DNA of 64,000 nt, from the sequence record OR449013; one strand, written 5' to 3'. Shown here one piece after another: positions 22,822 to 50,224 of the stretch (its first letter is position 1; the number at the start of each line of letters is the position of its first letter). Under the pieces are notes generated by a model. The model was not told where the DNA came from. It did no database searches and worked only from the letters and a program-made list of their open reading frames with translations. A program made the position numbers and the translations under genes. The stretch is from Escherichia phage Mangalyan.

Positions 22822-23618
22822 TAACAAACTGGCCGTTGTAAAACTCTCCTAACCTCATAAGAGGGGTCGGTAAATCCGGCTAACGGGGAACGCTAAGGCG
22901 AAAGCTATGCCAATCCCGTGACTAGTTCTTACAGGAGTTGGAACGGTTGTAACGACTAACGAAAGGCAGAGATGCTTGACAAACATTTCTGAACCAAGTA
23001 GTGTAGGGGTTAGTTGAAATACTAACTTCGAAATGGAGAGGCTCTATGAAAAAGATCATTCTTAATGGTGAAGAATCAAACTATGTGATTGATGAGGTTG
23101 GAAACGTATACGGAAAACGTGGAATGCTACACCCAATATTGTGGGGAGGTTATGGAAAAGGTAAAAAGCATGTTAAACGCCGTTATATGTACTCTTTCAA
23201 CCACAAAGGTAAAAAGATTCGAATCCAAACCTCAAGGATTGTTGCCTTGTATTGTTTGCCGGATGTCCCAGAAGACCCTGAAAACTGGGAAGTGAATCAT
23301 AAAGATGGCAATACATTGAATGATCATCCGTCTAACCTAGAGTGGGTTTTGCCGGAAGATAATAAGAGACATGCTTTCCGAACAGGACTTTGTCCAGGTA
23401 AGTGCTATAGGAAAGTGCAGGCATACAAAGGGAAAACCTTGGTGGGTGAATATCCTTCACTCTATGCCTGTGCAAAAGCCTTAAATTTGAACGTAGGTAA
23501 CGTTCATAGGGCTATCGAAGGAAATGCCGAAGGTAAGCATCTCACAATAAAGGGTTATTATCTTATTGAAGTAGAGTAAGAGATAGTCTGGCCCTGTGGA
23601 AACACAGGGAGGAGACAG
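22822..23618 (+). mobile_element. group I intron (IA-like) interrupting nrdD, carrying an HNH homing endonuclease ORF
   Basis: P1: exon CAACGGU (22815-22821) pairs perfectly with intron GCCGUUG (22832-22838), U-G at splice site; core-like AACGGGGAAC and CAATCCCGTG; omega G at 23618 restores frame ...SVNG|QTPFITLSLGLDTS. Confidence 0.8.
23046..23579 (+). CDS. HNH homing endonuclease (intron-encoded)
   Basis: HNH_3-like EVNHKDGNTLNDHPSNLEWVLPEDNKRHA; strong RBS GGAGAGG before ATG; located inside the intron. Confidence 0.75.
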   Translation: MKKIILNGEESNYVIDEVGNVYGKRGMLHPILWGGYGKGKKHVKRRYMYSFNHKGKKIRIQTSRIVALYCLPDVPEDPENWEVNHKDGNTLNDHPSNLEWVLPEDNKRHAFRTGLCPGKCYRKVQAYKGKTLVGEYPSLYACAKALNLNVGNVHRAIEGNAEGKHLTIKGYYLIEVE

Positions 23619-24881
23619 CAGACTCCATTCATCACATTGAGTTTAGGACTGGATACCTCGGTCTTTGGTAGAATGATTACCAAAAACTACTTGAAAGTCC
23701 ACAAAATGGGTCTTGGTGAAGAACGTATTACACCTGTATTCCCTAAAGTGCTGTTCTTCCTGGAAGAGGGTGTTAACATGAACCCTGGGGATCCTAACTA
23801 TGATTTGAAACGATTAGCTCTGGAATGCTGTGCAGAACGTATCTACCCTGACTTCGTATCTGTACCACTAAATAGAAAAGTGACAGGCTCGACAGATGGC
23901 AAAGTAACGAGCATGGGTTGCCGGAGTTTTCTTAGCAAATATAATGACTTGGAAACAGGTGAGGAAAAATACCTTGGCAGATTCAACTTGGGTGTTGTTA
24001 GCCTTAACCTGCCAATGATTGCGGCAAAAGCTAAGACGGAAGGTGTTGATTTCTTTGCAGTTCTTGACGAATACTTGGATCTTGCATACGAGGCTCACCT
24101 TGTAAGGGTTAACCGTCTAAAAGGAACAAAGGCAGGGCAGAACCCCATCATGTGGTGTGAAGGCGCTCTTGCTCGCCTGGATCCTGAAGAAAGTATTGAT
24201 AAACTCTTCTATGACGGGTACGCTTCCATCAGCATTGGGTATATTGGTGTGTATGAAACCTGTCAGATTTTGGGCAGAGAGGGTGACAAGGCTTTAGCTC
24301 TTGGAATCCTTCAGCACATGAGAGATGCTTGTGAGCGATACAAGAAGGAAAGTAGACTAGCGTTTAGCTTGTACGGCACCCCTTCTGAGAGTCTATGCTA
24401 TAAAGCTGCAACCTGTCTGGATCGTGAATATCCTGAAGTGTTGAAGCACGAGCATGAATATCTCACCAACAGTTTCCATCAGCCAGTATGGATCAATAGC
24501 TCTCCTTTTGATAAGTGGGCGTATGAGGAAGGTTTTGCTATGATCTCCTCTGGTGGCAACATCGGATATGTAGAGACACCGAATCTGAAAAACAACTTAG
24601 ATGCTTTAGAGGCTCTTGTTGACTTCGGGTATAAACACATTATGTATTTTGGTATTAACCAACCTGTGGATAAATGTCTCAAGTGTGGTTTCTCTGGGGA
24701 GTTCAGTGCAACAGCTAAAGGCTTTGTATGCCCAGAGTGTGGAAACCATGAAGAGGGAACGATCAGTGTGATCAGACGTGTGTCTGGATACCTTTCCAGT
24801 CCTAACTCCCGTCCTTATAATAAAGGTAAGCAAGCGGAAGTTATCGAGCGAGTTAAGCACTATGGAAGTTGTAGTTGCTGA
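23619..24881 (+). CDS. nrdD: anaerobic ribonucleotide reductase NrdD, exon 2
   Basis: glycyl-radical motif RRVSGYL near C-terminus, zinc ribbon CLKCG ... CPECG; frame open from 23580; 5' boundary set by inferred 3' splice site. Confidence 0.8.
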   Translation, partial: QTPFITLSLGLDTSVFGRMITKNYLKVHKMGLGEERITPVFPKVLFFLEEGVNMNPGDPNYDLKRLALECCAERIYPDFVSVPLNRKVTGSTDGKVTSMGCRSFLSKYNDLETGEEKYLGRFNLGVVSLNLPMIAAKAKTEGVDFFAVLDEYLDLAYEAHLVRVNRLKGTKAGQNPIMWCEGALARLDPEESIDKLFYDGYASISIGYIGVYETCQILGREGDKALALGILQHMRDACERYKKESRLAFSLYGTPSESLCYKAATCLDREYPEVLKHEHEYLTNSFHQPVWINSSPFDKWAYEEGFAMISSGGNIGYVETPNLKNNLDALEALVDFGYKHIMYFGINQPVDKCLKCGFSGEFSATAKGFVCPECGNHEEGTISVIRRVSGYLSSPNSRPYNKGKQAEVIERVKHYGSCSC

Positions 24882-24945
24882 TACTTGACAAAAGCCACAA
24901 GGATGTGGCACCATACAGATGTTTAGGGAAGTTAGGAAACAAGAG

Positions 24946-26079
24946 ATGGCTAAATTATCGACAGAAGAGTTTATAGAGAAGGCGAAAATCATTCACGGTT
25001 ATAAATACAATTACAAGAAAACAGTGTACGTGGATTGCTATGCGAAGGTTTGCATTACCTGTCAAATCCATGGAGATTTTATGCAAGCACCTTGTCAACA
25101 CTTGCAAGGTCGTGGTTGTCCTTTTTGTGCAAAACTTTCTCGTGCTACAAAGTGTAATAAAGGTCTTAAATTTGTAGAAAGAGCCAAAGAAATCCATGGA
25201 GATAACTATGACTACTCTCTCGTATACTACAAGACTTGCAAAGATAAAGTAGAAATAATCTGCAATACTTGTGGAAATCACTTTACACAGACACCTGACA
25301 ATCATATAAATTTGAAAAGAGGTTGTCCAGTTTGCAAGGGGTCAAGAATCTCACAAAGCAAAACCAAACCTCATGAAAAGTGGGTTGAGGACATAGAGAA
25401 GAAAAATACTTATATTGAAATATTAGAAGAGATCACCACTGGGTGGAATAAAGTATTATGTCGTTGCAAAGTTTGCAACCACGAATGGTCAGCTACGCCT
25501 GTTATCCTTAAGCGTGGTCACGGCTGCCCCGGATGTGGCGGATCTATGAAAAAGACCACTGAAGAGTTTATCCAGGACGCTGTGGCTATCCACGGGAACA
25601 AGTATGATTACTCTAAAGTGAGGTATGTGAATTCACACATCAAGGTTACAATTGTTTGCACAGATCATGGAGATTTCTGTCAATCCCCTACCCAGCATTT
25701 AGGAGGGGGAGGGTGTCCTAAATGCACCAAAAGAGGATTTTTATCCCACGATTGTGGTAAACTTTACATTATGGTTGATGATCCGGAAGTGCCTACATTT
25801 ATGAAAATAGGTGTCAGTCATAATGAAAGTAAGCGAAGAGACCAGATACTTAAAAGTGCACAAAGATCTGGAGCTGGTATCTGCGATCTGTACATAGTGA
25901 AAACGTTGGAAGGATCAACTGAAAACATGCTGGCTGTAGAAAAATCTATGCACAAAGCCTTCAGTAAATATAAAATAAACTTCCCTGTAAAATTTGATGG
26001 TAGCACCGAATTCTTCTACTACAGGCCTGAGGTGTTCAGCACAGTGGAAGCAGCGTACAAAGAGATCTGCGGTAAATGA
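24946..26079 (+). CDS. GIY-YIG-like (T5orf172-type) domain protein with four N-terminal zinc-ribbon repeats; putative free-standing homing endonuclease
   Basis: four repeats of H-G-x-x-Y-x-Y ... I-x-C ... HG-x-F ... GCP-x-C; C-terminal LYIMVDDPEVPTFMKIGVS ... RR ... E resembles GIY-(10)-YIG spacing. Confidence 0.6.
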   Translation: MAKLSTEEFIEKAKIIHGYKYNYKKTVYVDCYAKVCITCQIHGDFMQAPCQHLQGRGCPFCAKLSRATKCNKGLKFVERAKEIHGDNYDYSLVYYKTCKDKVEIICNTCGNHFTQTPDNHINLKRGCPVCKGSRISQSKTKPHEKWVEDIEKKNTYIEILEEITTGWNKVLCRCKVCNHEWSATPVILKRGHGCPGCGGSMKKTTEEFIQDAVAIHGNKYDYSKVRYVNSHIKVTIVCTDHGDFCQSPTQHLGGGGCPKCTKRGFLSHDCGKLYIMVDDPEVPTFMKIGVSHNESKRRDQILKSAQRSGAGICDLYIVKTLEGSTENMLAVEKSMHKAFSKYKINFPVKFDGSTEFFYYRPEVFSTVEAAYKEICGK

Positions 26080-26131
26080 TCGTAGAAAGATACACATATC
26101 TTAAACATGCTATAAACTAAGGAGGTACAGT

Positions 26132-26248
26132 ATGTCTACAGGCATTTATAAAATTTGCAAGTGTGGTTGTCGTTGCAATCTTCGTTGGTGCAAGGCACTG
26201 GACGATTTTATTTGGCATTGTCCTGAATGCGATGCAGAGTACTTATAA
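26132..26248 (+). CDS. small Cys-rich protein (38 aa), zinc-ribbon-like
   Basis: below ORF-track cutoff; ATG 8 nt after TAAGGAGGT; MSTGIYKICKCGCRCNLRWCKALDDFIWHCPECDAEYL. Confidence 0.55.
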   Translation: MSTGIYKICKCGCRCNLRWCKALDDFIWHCPECDAEYL

Positions 26249-26263
26249 GCATAAGGGGTCGAA

Positions 26264-26368
26264 ATGCGGAAATCTATCAAGAAAATCAAGATAAAATTGT
26301 TAGCACTGAAGCGTAAGTATAAAAAGTTATACGGCTTCATCAAATGGACTTTTATAAGTTTATCTTGA
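26264..26368 (+). CDS. small basic protein (34 aa)
   Basis: below ORF-track cutoff; ATG after AAGGGG; Lys-rich. Confidence 0.35.
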   Translation: MRKSIKKIKIKLLALKRKYKKLYGFIKWTFISLS

Positions 26369-26399
26369 ATAGAAGCACACCACAGAAGAGAGGTTCCTT

Positions 26400-26636
26400 A
26401 TGGTAGGTGTCTGTGTAAAAGCTAACAGATGGTTTACATTCGGCAAGGATTACGAAATTATCTTTCATTCGGACAGAGCCACAACAGTAGAAAGCGATGA
26501 TGGGTGCTACTGGTTCGTTAGTTACCAGGGTGATGGGTATTATAGATCTACTGATTCCAGAGGGGAAGAAGCTGTTTTCTTAGATAGAGCTTATTGTGGG
26601 CCTGAATATCCCTACCTCAAAGAGGGTAAGGAATGA
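26400..26636 (+). CDS. hypothetical protein (78 aa)
   Basis: ATG after AGAGAGG; overlaps nrdG start by 4 nt. Confidence 0.5.
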   Translation: MVGVCVKANRWFTFGKDYEIIFHSDRATTVESDDGCYWFVSYQGDGYYRSTDSRGEEAVFLDRAYCGPEYPYLKEGKE

Positions 26637-27106
26637 ATGTTGTTAATATTATAGAGTGTAGCATGGTTGACGGCCCAGGCATTAGGACAACGGTGTTCTG
26701 TTCTGGTTGTCCACATCACTGCGTTGGTTGCCAAAACAAAAGTGTTTGGTCACCCGCTAAAGGGGAACCGTTAACAAATGACACAATTGAGAGTATACTT
26801 CACTCTATAGAGCCGAAACATATTACTGGCGTTACATTATGCGGTGGCGAACCTTTAGCGCCTTACAATATCGATGGTATGTACTCGATCATTCTCGCTA
26901 TCCGTGAACGCTTCGGCAACACAAAAACTATCTGGGTGTACACAGGGTATTTGTTTGAAGAAGTCCCAGGTTATATTAAAGATAGTGTCGATTACATTAT
27001 GGATGGTAAGTACGAAAAAGATAACCCCACCAAAAAACCATTCAGAGGTAGTGATAACCAAAGAATGTTTAAAAAAGTATCAGGCGGTTGGGTTCAGGTA
27101 GACTAG
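26633..27106 (+). CDS. nrdG: anaerobic ribonucleotide reductase activating protein NrdG (radical SAM)
   Basis: Cys cluster FCSGCPHHCVGCQN (C-x3-C-x2-C) near N-terminus, GGEP motif; 157 aa. Confidence 0.85.
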   Translation: MNVVNIIECSMVDGPGIRTTVFCSGCPHHCVGCQNKSVWSPAKGEPLTNDTIESILHSIEPKHITGVTLCGGEPLAPYNIDGMYSIILAIRERFGNTKTIWVYTGYLFEEVPGYIKDSVDYIMDGKYEKDNPTKKPFRGSDNQRMFKKVSGGWVQVD

Positions 27107-27109
27107 CTG

Positions 27110-27139
27110 TTGACAAAGCTTTGTTTAGATAGGTATAAT
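27110..27139 (+). promoter_or_regulatory. sigma70-like promoter
   Basis: TTGACA 27110-27115, 18-bp spacer, TATAAT 27134-27139. Confidence 0.65.
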
Positions 27140-27170
27140 TATCGTAAAATGAAAGCAGAGGAGGTGCCAA

Positions 27171-27284
27171 ATGGCTAAAAAAGCCTTGAAGAAGGCGTAC
27201 AAAAAAGAAATTGCGCTTGAGCTCAAGAAAAAACACAAGCGTGAAAAGAAACATCATGAGGATGAAGAGGAGCTGCAACAGTGA
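27171..27284 (+). CDS. small basic protein (37 aa)
   Basis: below ORF-track cutoff; ATG 7 nt after GAGGAGG; Lys-rich then acidic tail. Confidence 0.5.
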   Translation: MAKKALKKAYKKEIALELKKKHKREKKHHEDEEELQQ

Positions 27285-27631
27285 CACAAGAACGTATCGA
27301 TTTGGCTAATAAGTTTGTAGATCTCATTTTGCCACGGTTAGTTACTCAACATGCAGACGCTATTTCTACTAATCTTGATGGCTTACGCCTAATGCTGAAT
27401 CGCACAGATGACCCTCGCATTCGGGCTGATTTAGAAGCCTCTGCCAACAAACTGGAAAAGTTCTTGCAAGTAGATACGCAAGAAGCCTTACACAAGATTA
27501 TGGTGGAAGGTTTCTCTAAAGAATTTACCATTAAAGAGCTTAAGGAGCTGATCCACCAAGAAGAGATGAATATCCGAGTTCAGGCTGTTGCAAGCAGCAT
27601 GGAAGCGGCTATTGAAAAACTGTTGCAGTAA
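27281..27631 (+). CDS. hypothetical protein (116 aa)
   Basis: GTG start overlapping upstream stop. Confidence 0.45.
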   Translation: MTQERIDLANKFVDLILPRLVTQHADAISTNLDGLRLMLNRTDDPRIRADLEASANKLEKFLQVDTQEALHKIMVEGFSKEFTIKELKELIHQEEMNIRVQAVASSMEAAIEKLLQ

Positions 27632-27669
27632 AAGTACTTGGCACATCTCAATCTGAAAGGAGTCCCAAC

Positions 27670-28458
27670 ATGGGTCGAGCTAAAGAAACAAAACGCATGC
27701 GTGATGAAGCTAGAGAGGCTCGCAAATCTGATCGCCTGCGCAAGGCTGCTGAGAAATTTGCTGACGAAAGAGAGCACACCGCTCCAGCTCTCCGACCAAT
27801 GAATAAGAAGCAGCAAAAGTATCTTGATTATCTAGGGTCACGTAAGATTATCATTGTAAACGGTGTGTTTGGATCCGGTAAGACATTCATGGCATCTGCA
27901 TATGCAGGTGATCTTCTGCGTAAGAACGAGATTGATAAGATCATTGTTGCACGTCCTTACGTTCAGACAGGAAAGACTTCAGGATTTAAACCTGGAAATG
28001 CAATGCAGAAACTGTGGCCCTATCTTCGAAGCATGATGGACACGATTTGTCGTCGTGTTGGCAAAGGTGCTTTTGCCGCAATGCTGGGAGACGGTCAGAA
28101 CAGTCGTATCGAGATTTGTGAAGTTGAAAGCATTCGTGGTCGTAGTTTCGATGAGCGATGCTTTGTCCTGATTGACGAGGCACAGCAAACTAACCCTGAA
28201 GAAATGTTGTCAATTATCACAAGGATCTCTGATCAGGCCACCCTTGTAATCATGGGCGATAATAGCCAACGTGACATCCCTGGTAAATCTGGACTTGCAT
28301 GGGTGACGGATTTCTTTACTCGTCATCCAGATCCTGAGGTTGGAATGATCAGCTTTGATAGTCCAGACGATGTCGTTCGTTCCGGATTGGGTCGTCAGAT
28401 TGCACTCAATCTTATTGAGGATCGTGCAAATCATATTTGGACCCCTGTTTCCGAGTAA
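27670..28458 (+). CDS. phoH: PhoH-like ATPase
   Basis: Walker A GVFGSGKT, Walker B-like VLIDEAQ, PhoH-type GDNSQRD; 262 aa. Confidence 0.85.
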   Translation: MGRAKETKRMRDEAREARKSDRLRKAAEKFADEREHTAPALRPMNKKQQKYLDYLGSRKIIIVNGVFGSGKTFMASAYAGDLLRKNEIDKIIVARPYVQTGKTSGFKPGNAMQKLWPYLRSMMDTICRRVGKGAFAAMLGDGQNSRIEICEVESIRGRSFDERCFVLIDEAQQTNPEEMLSIITRISDQATLVIMGDNSQRDIPGKSGLAWVTDFFTRHPDPEVGMISFDSPDDVVRSGLGRQIALNLIEDRANHIWTPVSE

Positions 28459-46593: not shown

Positions 46594-46607
46594 TTTTTAT
46601 CGCTCTT

Positions 46608-46741
46608 TAAAACAAGGTGCCAACCGTTTCCAATAGATCACTGACCATCAGGACAATACTGATCAGCACATATCTAACCATAAGGGGAAAGAGCGCCAGC
46701 GATCCCGCCACGATCCCCATGGTAATAATTATCTTTCTCAT
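46608..46741 (-). CDS. hydrophobic mini-protein (44 aa)
   Basis: below cutoff; start overlaps stop of upstream gene; MRKIIITMGIVAGSLALFPLMV. Confidence 0.3.
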
Positions 46742-47342: not shown

Positions 47343-47347
47343 CTCAA

Positions 47348-47452
47348 CCGATACCGTGGGAAGATAGGATCATGTTAGCCATAGTTGCAACCAATCCAAC
47401 CAATAATGCCAGGCCAACTACTACAACCGTGAAAATTTTTTCTAACATGATT
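47348..47452 (-). CDS. hydrophobic mini-protein (about 34 aa)
   Basis: below cutoff; MLEKIFTVVVVGLALLVGLVATMANMIL; preceded by GC hairpin and GAGGG. Confidence 0.3.
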
Positions 47453-49928: not shown

Positions 49929-50048
49929 GGGGCCGTTCTTAGTTACTTACAGCGATAAAGTACATCCCTACGCCTAGCAATATTTCAAGGGCGATAATCT
50001 CAAGCCATACCATAACGCGGCGCACCTTATCGGTGCGGGGCTTATCCT
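49929..50048 (-). CDS. hydrophobic mini-protein (39 aa)
   Basis: below cutoff; GGGGGAG RBS; MTPKDKPRTDKVRRVMVWLEIIALEILLGVGMYFIAVSN. Confidence 0.35.
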
Positions 50049-50224
50049 TGGGTGTCATCGTCTCCCCCTTCCCTTCTGGTAGTAGTGACGTGGTTTACAA
50101 TGGCCCCCAGGAGTATTATCACCACGCACATTACAAGAAAAATTATCTCTGTCGTTGTTCGATCCATTGTTATAAAATTCCTTAAGATCAGGCCTGAAAA
50201 TAAAGCTTTCATTATTGAATCCAT
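50042..50224 (-). CDS. small membrane protein (up to 60 aa)
   Basis: ORF with hydrophobic core IIFLVMCVVIILLGAIV; start uncertain. Confidence 0.3.
   Translation of the reverse strand: MDSIMKALFSGLILRNFITMDRTTTEIIFLVMCVVIILLGAIVNHVTTTRREGGDDDTQG

Follow-up and report, generated by a model that had tools for sequence, protein, structure and literature searches.

Conservation and predicted function of a seven-cysteine microprotein gene and an adjacent probable accessory gene in the nrdD-nrdG region of rV5-like Escherichia coli phages

Results and Discussion

Organization of the locus

The sequence analyzed (the window) is a 64,000-nucleotide stretch of Escherichia phage Mangalyan (OR449013), an rV5-like E. 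coli myovirus (Vequintavirus). The region 24900-27700 was matched by 120 phage records with identities of 80-99%, and all of the genes from nrdD to nrdG share the + strand (Table 1). A preliminary description, made from the sequence alone, had placed two mini-genes with strong ribosome-binding sites between a GIY-YIG-like gene and nrdG. Both ORFs are located there; however, the 78-aa ORF that precedes nrdG, which is named "putative minor capsid protein" in some relatives and a hypothetical protein in others, had been omitted. The coordinates of both frames were confirmed: ORF1 runs from ATG to TAA and encodes MSTGIYKICKCGCRCNLRWCKALDDFIWHCPECDAEYL (38 aa; cysteines C9, C11, C13, C15, C20, C30, and C33) behind a strong Shine-Dalgarno (SD) sequence, and ORF2 runs from ATG to TGA (34 aa) behind AAGGGGT.

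Table 1. Coordinates of the features discussed in the present study
Feature	Position	Strand	Basis or remark
nrdD	ends 24881	+	Gene order at the locus
Homing-endonuclease-like gene, free-standing (three DUF4379 treble-clef zinc fingers + T5orf172)	24919..26079	+	Pfam and PHROG matches
SD of ORF1, TAAGGAGGT	26118..26126	+	5 nt before the ATG; read from sequence
ORF1, 38-aa microprotein, 7 Cys, probable zinc ribbon, PHROG 20137	26132..26248	+	ORF, conservation
SD-like AAGGGGT of ORF2	26253..26259	+	4 nt before the ATG; read from sequence
ORF2, 34 aa, net charge +12, probable accessory gene	26264..26368	+	ORF; identical to rV5 gp110
78-aa ORF, PHROG 3249	26400..26636	+	Stop overlaps the nrdG ATG (ATGA)
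nrdG, anaerobic ribonucleotide reductase (RNR) activase (radical SAM)	26633..27106	+	Pfam Fer4_12, 2.1e-37
Swapped cassette: ORF2 + 78-aa ORF + first ~120 codons of nrdG	26253..26994	+	blastn against FFH2
Antisense 65-aa ORF, judged not to be a gene	26146..26343	-	Extent, start codon, and frame vary among relatives
Hydrophobic mini-ORFs	34545, 39985, 41668	+	Annotated CDSs in phage EmilHeitz
Hydrophobic mini-ORFs	46607-46741 (44 aa), 47344-47448	-	Annotated CDSs in phage EmilHeitz
Mini-ORF cited previously as "49929"	49939-50058	-	ORF present

No promoter-like site was found on the + strand between the stop of the endonuclease gene (26079) and ORF2, and no credible terminator was found around ORF1, which indicates that ORF1 is read from the operon transcript. 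A terminator-like hairpin inside ORF1 (26185-26201) was within chance expectation and varies synonymously in relatives. The RNA fold of the ORF1 region gave z = +0.67 against shuffled sequences, and no Rfam covariance model matched 24900-27100 at E <= 1.

The endonuclease gene is missing in most relatives, the homology of which resumes at 26115-26120. Based on these alignment boundaries, we consider it to be an insertion separate from the cassette that carries ORF2 (see below). Other endonuclease genes occupy the same spot between nrdD and ORF1 in the loci L006 and L007, which gives the junction the appearance of a hotspot for mobile endonuclease genes. The nrdD gene itself is apparently interrupted at 23250-23640. 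An endonuclease-like ORF there ends at approximately 23580, and an Rfam group I intron match at 23322-23609 was sub-threshold (27.7 bits against a gathering threshold of 50; E 4e-4). The nrdD annotation of phage WalterGehring joins two pieces around an internal homing endonuclease.

The two mini-genes had been described as unannotated, which did not hold. Identical proteins are deposited in NCBI as hypothetical proteins (AXU22564.1 for ORF1 and ABI79180.1, rv5_gp110, for ORF2), both ORFs are annotated CDSs in WalterGehring (bas51_0185 and bas51_0184) and LL12 (114 and 115), and FFH2 annotates ORF1 as ORF107. ORF2 does not differ from rV5 gp110 (ORF115) at any of its 34 residues. ORF1 matched PHROG 20137 over its entire length (residues 1-38 on profile positions 1-38/38; E 2.3e-31, 108.6 bits) and is assigned to this family by the profile match; it belongs together with, and has the same nrdD-nrdG position as, FFH2 ORF107, LL12_114, bas51_0185, and AXU22564.1. 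Therefore, ORF1 and ORF2 are not new; they belong to hypothetical-protein families that are already annotated in Vequintavirus.

Conservation and selection of ORF1

A strong SD sequence followed by an ATG-initiated ORF of 30-60 aa occurs six times in the window and 1.7 +/- 1.2 times in shuffled sequences. Therefore, the SD alone is weak evidence for a gene, and conservation decides. A tblastn search with ORF1 found it in all 121 matching phage records, namely, every Vequintavirus record with the region (120) and one podovirus. In a word-indexed database of 5.8 billion proteins, the family formed 14 clusters. On myovirus contigs of 136-140 kb, the search yielded variants of 41 aa and 53-54 aa bearing a Lys/Glu-rich N-terminal extension. 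All variants (36-54 aa) retained the seven cysteines and the core NLRWC...DD.IW.CP.C..EYL, and the pattern invariant in the family is C-K-(x)-C-G-C-x-C-N-L-R-W-C-x9-C-P-x-C-x2-E-Y-L. Copies with all of the cysteines are also present in SP6-like podoviruses (ACG-C91, L009, and L011), next to a DNA ligase gene.

When 16 distinct sequences were aligned by codon, the variable sites at codon positions 1/2/3 numbered 17/10/32, and the cysteine codons toggle between TGT and TGC among relatives. Pairwise pN/pS was 0.13 when 36 core codons were compared and 0.11 for the gap-free block. Relatives keep a GGAG-type SD (CTAGGAGGT, AAAGGAGGT, TAAGGAGTT, CAGGAGAT, and AAAGAGGTG) despite a divergent upstream flank. 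Conservation in relatives, which the preliminary description had proposed as a check, was thus borne out for ORF1 by purifying selection, the invariant cysteines, the conserved SD, and conserved synteny. We conclude that ORF1 is a genuine protein-coding gene, a conclusion strongly supported by these sequence comparisons.

The family is narrow. No member beyond it was found in PDB sequences, Pfam, NCBIfam, IMG/VR, JGI metagenomes, or GTDB genomes, and a HMMER scan of 1.84 billion representatives gave three hits, none of which extended the family. One of the three (P0015) was a spurious repeat protein, and an IMG/VR match with 42% identity (L016) was out of frame inside a tail-fibre-like gene. 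No paralogue of ORF1 is present in the window. A literature search returned nothing on ORF1 or ORF2, nor any experimental evidence of their translation.

Two unusual forms were noted. Phage Alma (P0003; L024 692-877) has a frameshifted 61-aa version of ORF1, and in a 1.5-kb ENA contig (P0014), the first half of ORF1 is joined in frame to the second half of the 78-aa ORF. Natural deletion variants and errors of sequencing or assembly are both conceivable as the origin of these forms. In addition, over this region, approximately 18 MG0656xx records with the name "Campylobacter phage" are nearly identical to E. coli Vequintaviruses, and their host labels look doubtful.

ORF2 and the replacement cassette

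In blastn comparisons of the window with FFH2, homology stops at 26252, four bases past the stop of ORF1, and resumes at 26995 inside nrdG. The flanks of this swapped cassette have 93-97% DNA identity to FFH2-type Vequintaviruses. NrdG of the window is 52% identical to that of FFH2 and 84% identical to that of L012, in which ORF1 (41 aa) is followed by ORF2 and nrdG without the 78-aa ORF. In most relatives, ORF1 joins nrdG directly, and the cassette replaces that junction in the window. Based on these breakpoints, the NrdG identities, and the layout of L012, we conclude that ORF2 is part of a replacement cassette, whereas ORF1 is part of the conserved backbone.

The ORF2 region is carried by 32 of the 121 records with identities of 94-100%. 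The ATG, stop, 34-codon length, and SD are kept in all ten distinct sequences, with an intact frame in each; the SD reads AAGGGG in nine of the ten relatives carrying ORF2 and AAGAGG in L012. Homology to L012 ends exactly at the stop of ORF2, downstream of which the DNA differs, as expected of a gene-bounded module. The replacements are mostly conservative (K/R, L/V, A/V, and L/M). We consider it likely that ORF2 codes for a protein. It would then probably be an accessory gene that is confined to its lineage, encodes a highly basic helical peptide, and arrived with the replacement cassette.

The other reading of ORF2, which we regard as unlikely though by no means negligible, is that it is not a gene, but a chance frame in an AT- and Lys-codon-rich spacer or a cis element in which its SD pairs with the start of the 78-aa ORF. 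Although its frame is constant, ORF2 is weakly supported as a gene: pN/pS was 0.31, marginally the lowest of the six frames (the other five gave 0.35-0.71), and the variable codons comprised 10 nonsynonymous and 6 synonymous changes, a divergence so low that the coding test is weak. The probability of the frame remaining free of stops by chance is approximately 0.2-0.3 by our own estimate, from a stop-creating fraction of 0.075. Furthermore, the central 70 nt are nearly identical at the nucleotide level, even in L012, several annotators skipped the frame, and its relatives are confined to a narrow group. Outside this group, no relatives were found, and a search with a degenerate ORF2 core pattern gave a single antisense hit by chance.

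Regarding the cis element, CAUAAGG in the ribosome-binding region of ORF2 (26250-26256) is perfectly complementary to CCUUAUG (26396-26402) at the start codon of the 78-aa ORF, and the predicted fold pairs the two (z = -1.98). However, 6 of 200 shuffles folded equally well, no Rfam family was matched, and the modeled long-range pairing is not compelling.

The AF2 model of ORF2 is a single helix (residues 2-33; pLDDT 84.5). With 12 Lys/Arg among its 34 residues, the peptide has a mean hydrophobicity of -0.09, and its amphipathicity was not significantly above that of shuffled sequences. The predicted product is a single soluble or amphipathic helix. A small hydrophobic membrane peptide, such as a type I toxin-like peptide, was considered and rejected because ORF2 has no transmembrane stretch and no uncharged run of transmembrane length.

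Predicted product of ORF1

The AF2 model of ORF1, built on a 13-sequence alignment, is a three-stranded antiparallel sheet (strands 16-20, 25-30, and 35-37) of moderate confidence (pLDDT 66.6). In a Foldseek search of the model against the PDB, the best matches were zinc ribbons, with TM scores of 0.64-0.76 and rmsd values of 1.0-1.4 A over 30-34 residues at non-significant E values (0.8 or higher); the nearest folds were RPB9, the NUDIX N-terminal ribbon, ZifS, and topoisomerase I ribbons. The Pfam signals of some family members were all to zinc-ribbon families (Zn_ribbon_NUD, LITAF-like, and HVO_0758) and all sub-threshold. CPEC, the second knuckle, occurs without variation. For the first knuckle, the variants of 41-54 aa have CKDC or CKHC; ORF1 of the window has CKC (CxC) instead of the canonical CxxC. 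Three invariant cysteines are left beyond a simple Zn(Cys)4 site.

The product of ORF1 is probably a seven-cysteine, three-stranded zinc-ribbon-like microprotein of 38 residues. Judging from the model and its nearest structural matches, it most likely binds metal (Zn). With its predicted three-stranded sheet and its CPxC knuckle, it would resemble zinc-ribbon mini-domains and microproteins, including those of the RPB9/TFIIS type, the NUDIX N-terminal domain, ZifS of Thermus, and the small CPxCG zinc-finger proteins of Haloferax. However, ORF1 has seven invariant cysteines rather than four, its first knuckle is CxCxCxC, and neither sequence nor structure gave a significant E value against them.

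Overlap of ORF1 with the downstream gene

Where ORF1 abuts nrdG, its stop overlaps the nrdG start as ATGA (FFH2, typing phage 14, L014, L017, L021, L008, and L013) or GTGA (L007). The podovirus copies (ACG-C91, L009, and L011) have the same ATGA overlap with the DNA ligase gene, such that the overlap was present in 11 of the 11 distinct loci read at which ORF1 abuts nrdG or ligase. The last codons of ORF1 (A-E-Y-L, GCG GAG TAT CTA TGA) also place GGAG 5 nt before the nrdG start. Both the overlap and the SD embedded in ORF1 are plain from the sequence, and we infer from them that ORF1 is a translationally coupled upstream cistron. Since its end codons carry both the GGAG and the ATGA of the next gene, translation of ORF1 would feed ribosomes into nrdG in the ancestral arrangement and into DNA ligase in SP6-like podoviruses. 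In rV5-like phages, ORF1 is a gene of the nrdD-nrdG operon with its own strong SD.

Function of ORF1

Some phages that have no nrdDG carry a selected copy of ORF1, and ORF1 is missing from sister phages that do have nrdDG; therefore, its function is probably portable and not specific to the phage NrdG. Most likely, the product serves as a small module that binds a protein or nucleic-acid partner and is neither an enzyme nor a subunit of RNR. A portable binding module with some partner is the reading that we moderately favor. Taken as a whole, an ORF1 operon gene for a portable zinc-ribbon-like module accompanied by ORF2 as a probable accessory gene appears to be a fairly good bet as the best explanation of the locus.

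Several records and the PHROG 20137 label call the ORF1 family "ribonucleotide reductase". At E <= 1, no Pfam family and no RNR domain matched ORF1, whereas Fer4_12 was readily detected in the neighboring nrdG (Table 1). An identity as the anaerobic RNR proteins NrdD or NrdG was rejected because ORF1 has no NRDD/glycyl-radical or radical-SAM domain and 38 aa is far too small. The label is unsupported because sister phages have nrdD-nrdG without ORF1: in the related 139-140 kb phages L029 and L031, nrdD is directly followed by nrdG with no ORF1-like ORF. Among IMG/VR nrdG loci, ORF1 was absent upstream in 44 of 46, and the two exceptions (L027 and L028) were Vequintavirus-type loci already counted. 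Across independent phage lineages, ORF1 thus does not co-occur with nrdDG. The label is a guilt-by-position misnomer.

A more specific proposal is that ORF1 is a dedicated accessory of anaerobic RNR, that is, a metal or redox partner (a rubredoxin- or ferredoxin-like donor, an Fe-S or Zn chaperone, or a scaffold) whose synthesis keeps pace with that of NrdG through translational coupling. In keeping with this, ORF1 invariably lies in the nrdD-nrdG interval, both in Vequintavirus and in the more distant contigs L007, L008, L012, and L013, and has the ATGA overlap with nrdG. However, the synteny across Vequintavirus is that of one lineage and is not independent evidence; two other ORFs separate ORF1 from nrdG in the window, most phage nrdG loci have nrdG directly after nrdD, and the selected SP6-like podovirus copies have no nrdDG at the locus and are joined to DNA ligase instead. 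Moreover, no fusion of the ORF1 module to NrdG, NrdD, or any larger protein, and no homology to a larger protein, was found among the 1.84 billion representatives.

The seven invariant cysteines exceed the needs of a zinc ribbon, and the family has CxxCG and WxCPxC motifs, which are of the rubredoxin-knuckle type. Similar to rubredoxin, it combines CxxCG (in the long variants) and W-x-C-P-x-C knuckles with a small size. In contrast to rubredoxin, the spacing between its knuckles is much shorter, it has extra cysteines, and the variant in the window is without CxxC. Rubredoxin (PF00301) was not matched at E <= 10 by any of 13 family members, and no Pfam ferredoxin match was obtained at this threshold either.

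A zinc-ribbon cistron next to nrdG was also encountered elsewhere. In an unrelated IMG/VR group (L039-L041, 1160-1504), a 114-aa protein that ends in a CxxC...CPxC zinc ribbon has a stop overlapping the start of nrdG. It may represent a separate instance of a zinc-ribbon cistron coupled to nrdG, and it lends the RNR-accessory proposal some support.

An RNR-specific role is conceivable because the host also has NrdDG, and the podovirus context may be compatible with an action of ORF1 on host NrdDG. Weighing both sides, we consider an RNR-specific role to be unlikely, and less likely than the portable binding module. A narrower version would make ORF1 a new metal or redox partner of class III RNR activation that acts on phage or host NrdG/NrdD or antagonizes the zinc-ribbon repressor NrdR. 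In its favor, E. coli encodes NrdDG and three invariant cysteines are left after Zn(Cys)4; nevertheless, we regard it as improbable. If it were true, the spread of ORF1 to podoviruses would reflect an action on the host anaerobic dNTP supply.

Slightly more doubtful still is a Com-like or other nucleic-acid-binding zinc-ribbon regulator of the overlapped gene or of host nrd genes. Com of phage Mu is a zinc-ribbon translational activator, and the com gene overlaps mom. The two are alike in that ORF1 also encodes a small cysteine-rich phage protein and lies immediately before the next gene, which it overlaps, and one public record names a member of the ORF1 clusters "HTH-type transcriptional regulator". 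However, ORF1 has no sequence match to Com and no other family match, and its product has a net charge of 0. The downstream genes and their leaders are wholly different (nrdG, ligase, or ORF2), which makes a conserved mRNA target unlikely. A portable binding module is preferred over such a regulator.

Antisense and alternative frames

The preliminary description had judged the antisense 65-aa ORF to be less plausible, and we agree, although no other ORF over this region of the window is longer. Relatives do not share the start, end, or frame of their antisense ORFs, and the best (wobble-coincident) antisense frame over ORF1 had a pN/pS of 0.22, worse than that of the sense frame, with a stop in 1 of 16 sequences; on these comparisons, we conclude that this ORF is not a gene. 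The rV5 RefSeq annotates a 75-aa ORF in another + frame, gp109 (ORF114; NC_011041 87773-88000, equivalent to L002 2452-2679), which starts with TTG and overlaps the true ORF1. Over ORF1, pN/pS in the +1 and +2 frames was 1.1 and 2.1, and the gp109 annotation in the type genome is probably a wrong-frame error. That either of these frames, rather than ORF1 and ORF2, is the true gene is hardly credible, with the neighboring genes all on the + strand.

Other small ORFs and implications

Six further hydrophobic mini-proteins had been listed in the preliminary description. Five of these ORFs lie within a few bases of the sites given, and the sixth was misplaced (Table 1). They had not been overlooked, being already annotated in public records of close relatives, and their exact sequences are in NCBI, except for the 44-aa one.

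The present study confirms that sub-threshold ORFs in the rV5-like phage family are real genes. It also corrects two public annotation errors, the frame of rV5 gp109 (probably) and the name "ribonucleotide reductase" for a 38-aa peptide that is probably zinc-ribbon-like. A useful by-product is the description of ORF1 as a seven-cysteine, putatively zinc-ribbon-like cistron with inferred coupling to nrdG or ligase. The finding on ORF1 and ORF2 is correct but ordinary and opens no new kind of system. Vequintavirus is a genus used in phage therapy and biocontrol. Since ORF1 is universal in this genus and appears to be coupled to genes of nucleotide and DNA metabolism, it is a reasonable, modest target for functional studies of phage microproteins.

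At 27110-27139, 3' of nrdG, lies a promoter that matches the sigma-70 consensus perfectly (TTGACA-18-TATAAT). It is followed by an SD-led mini-ORF (27171-27284) that encodes a Lys/Glu-rich protein of 37 aa belonging to PHROG 7670.
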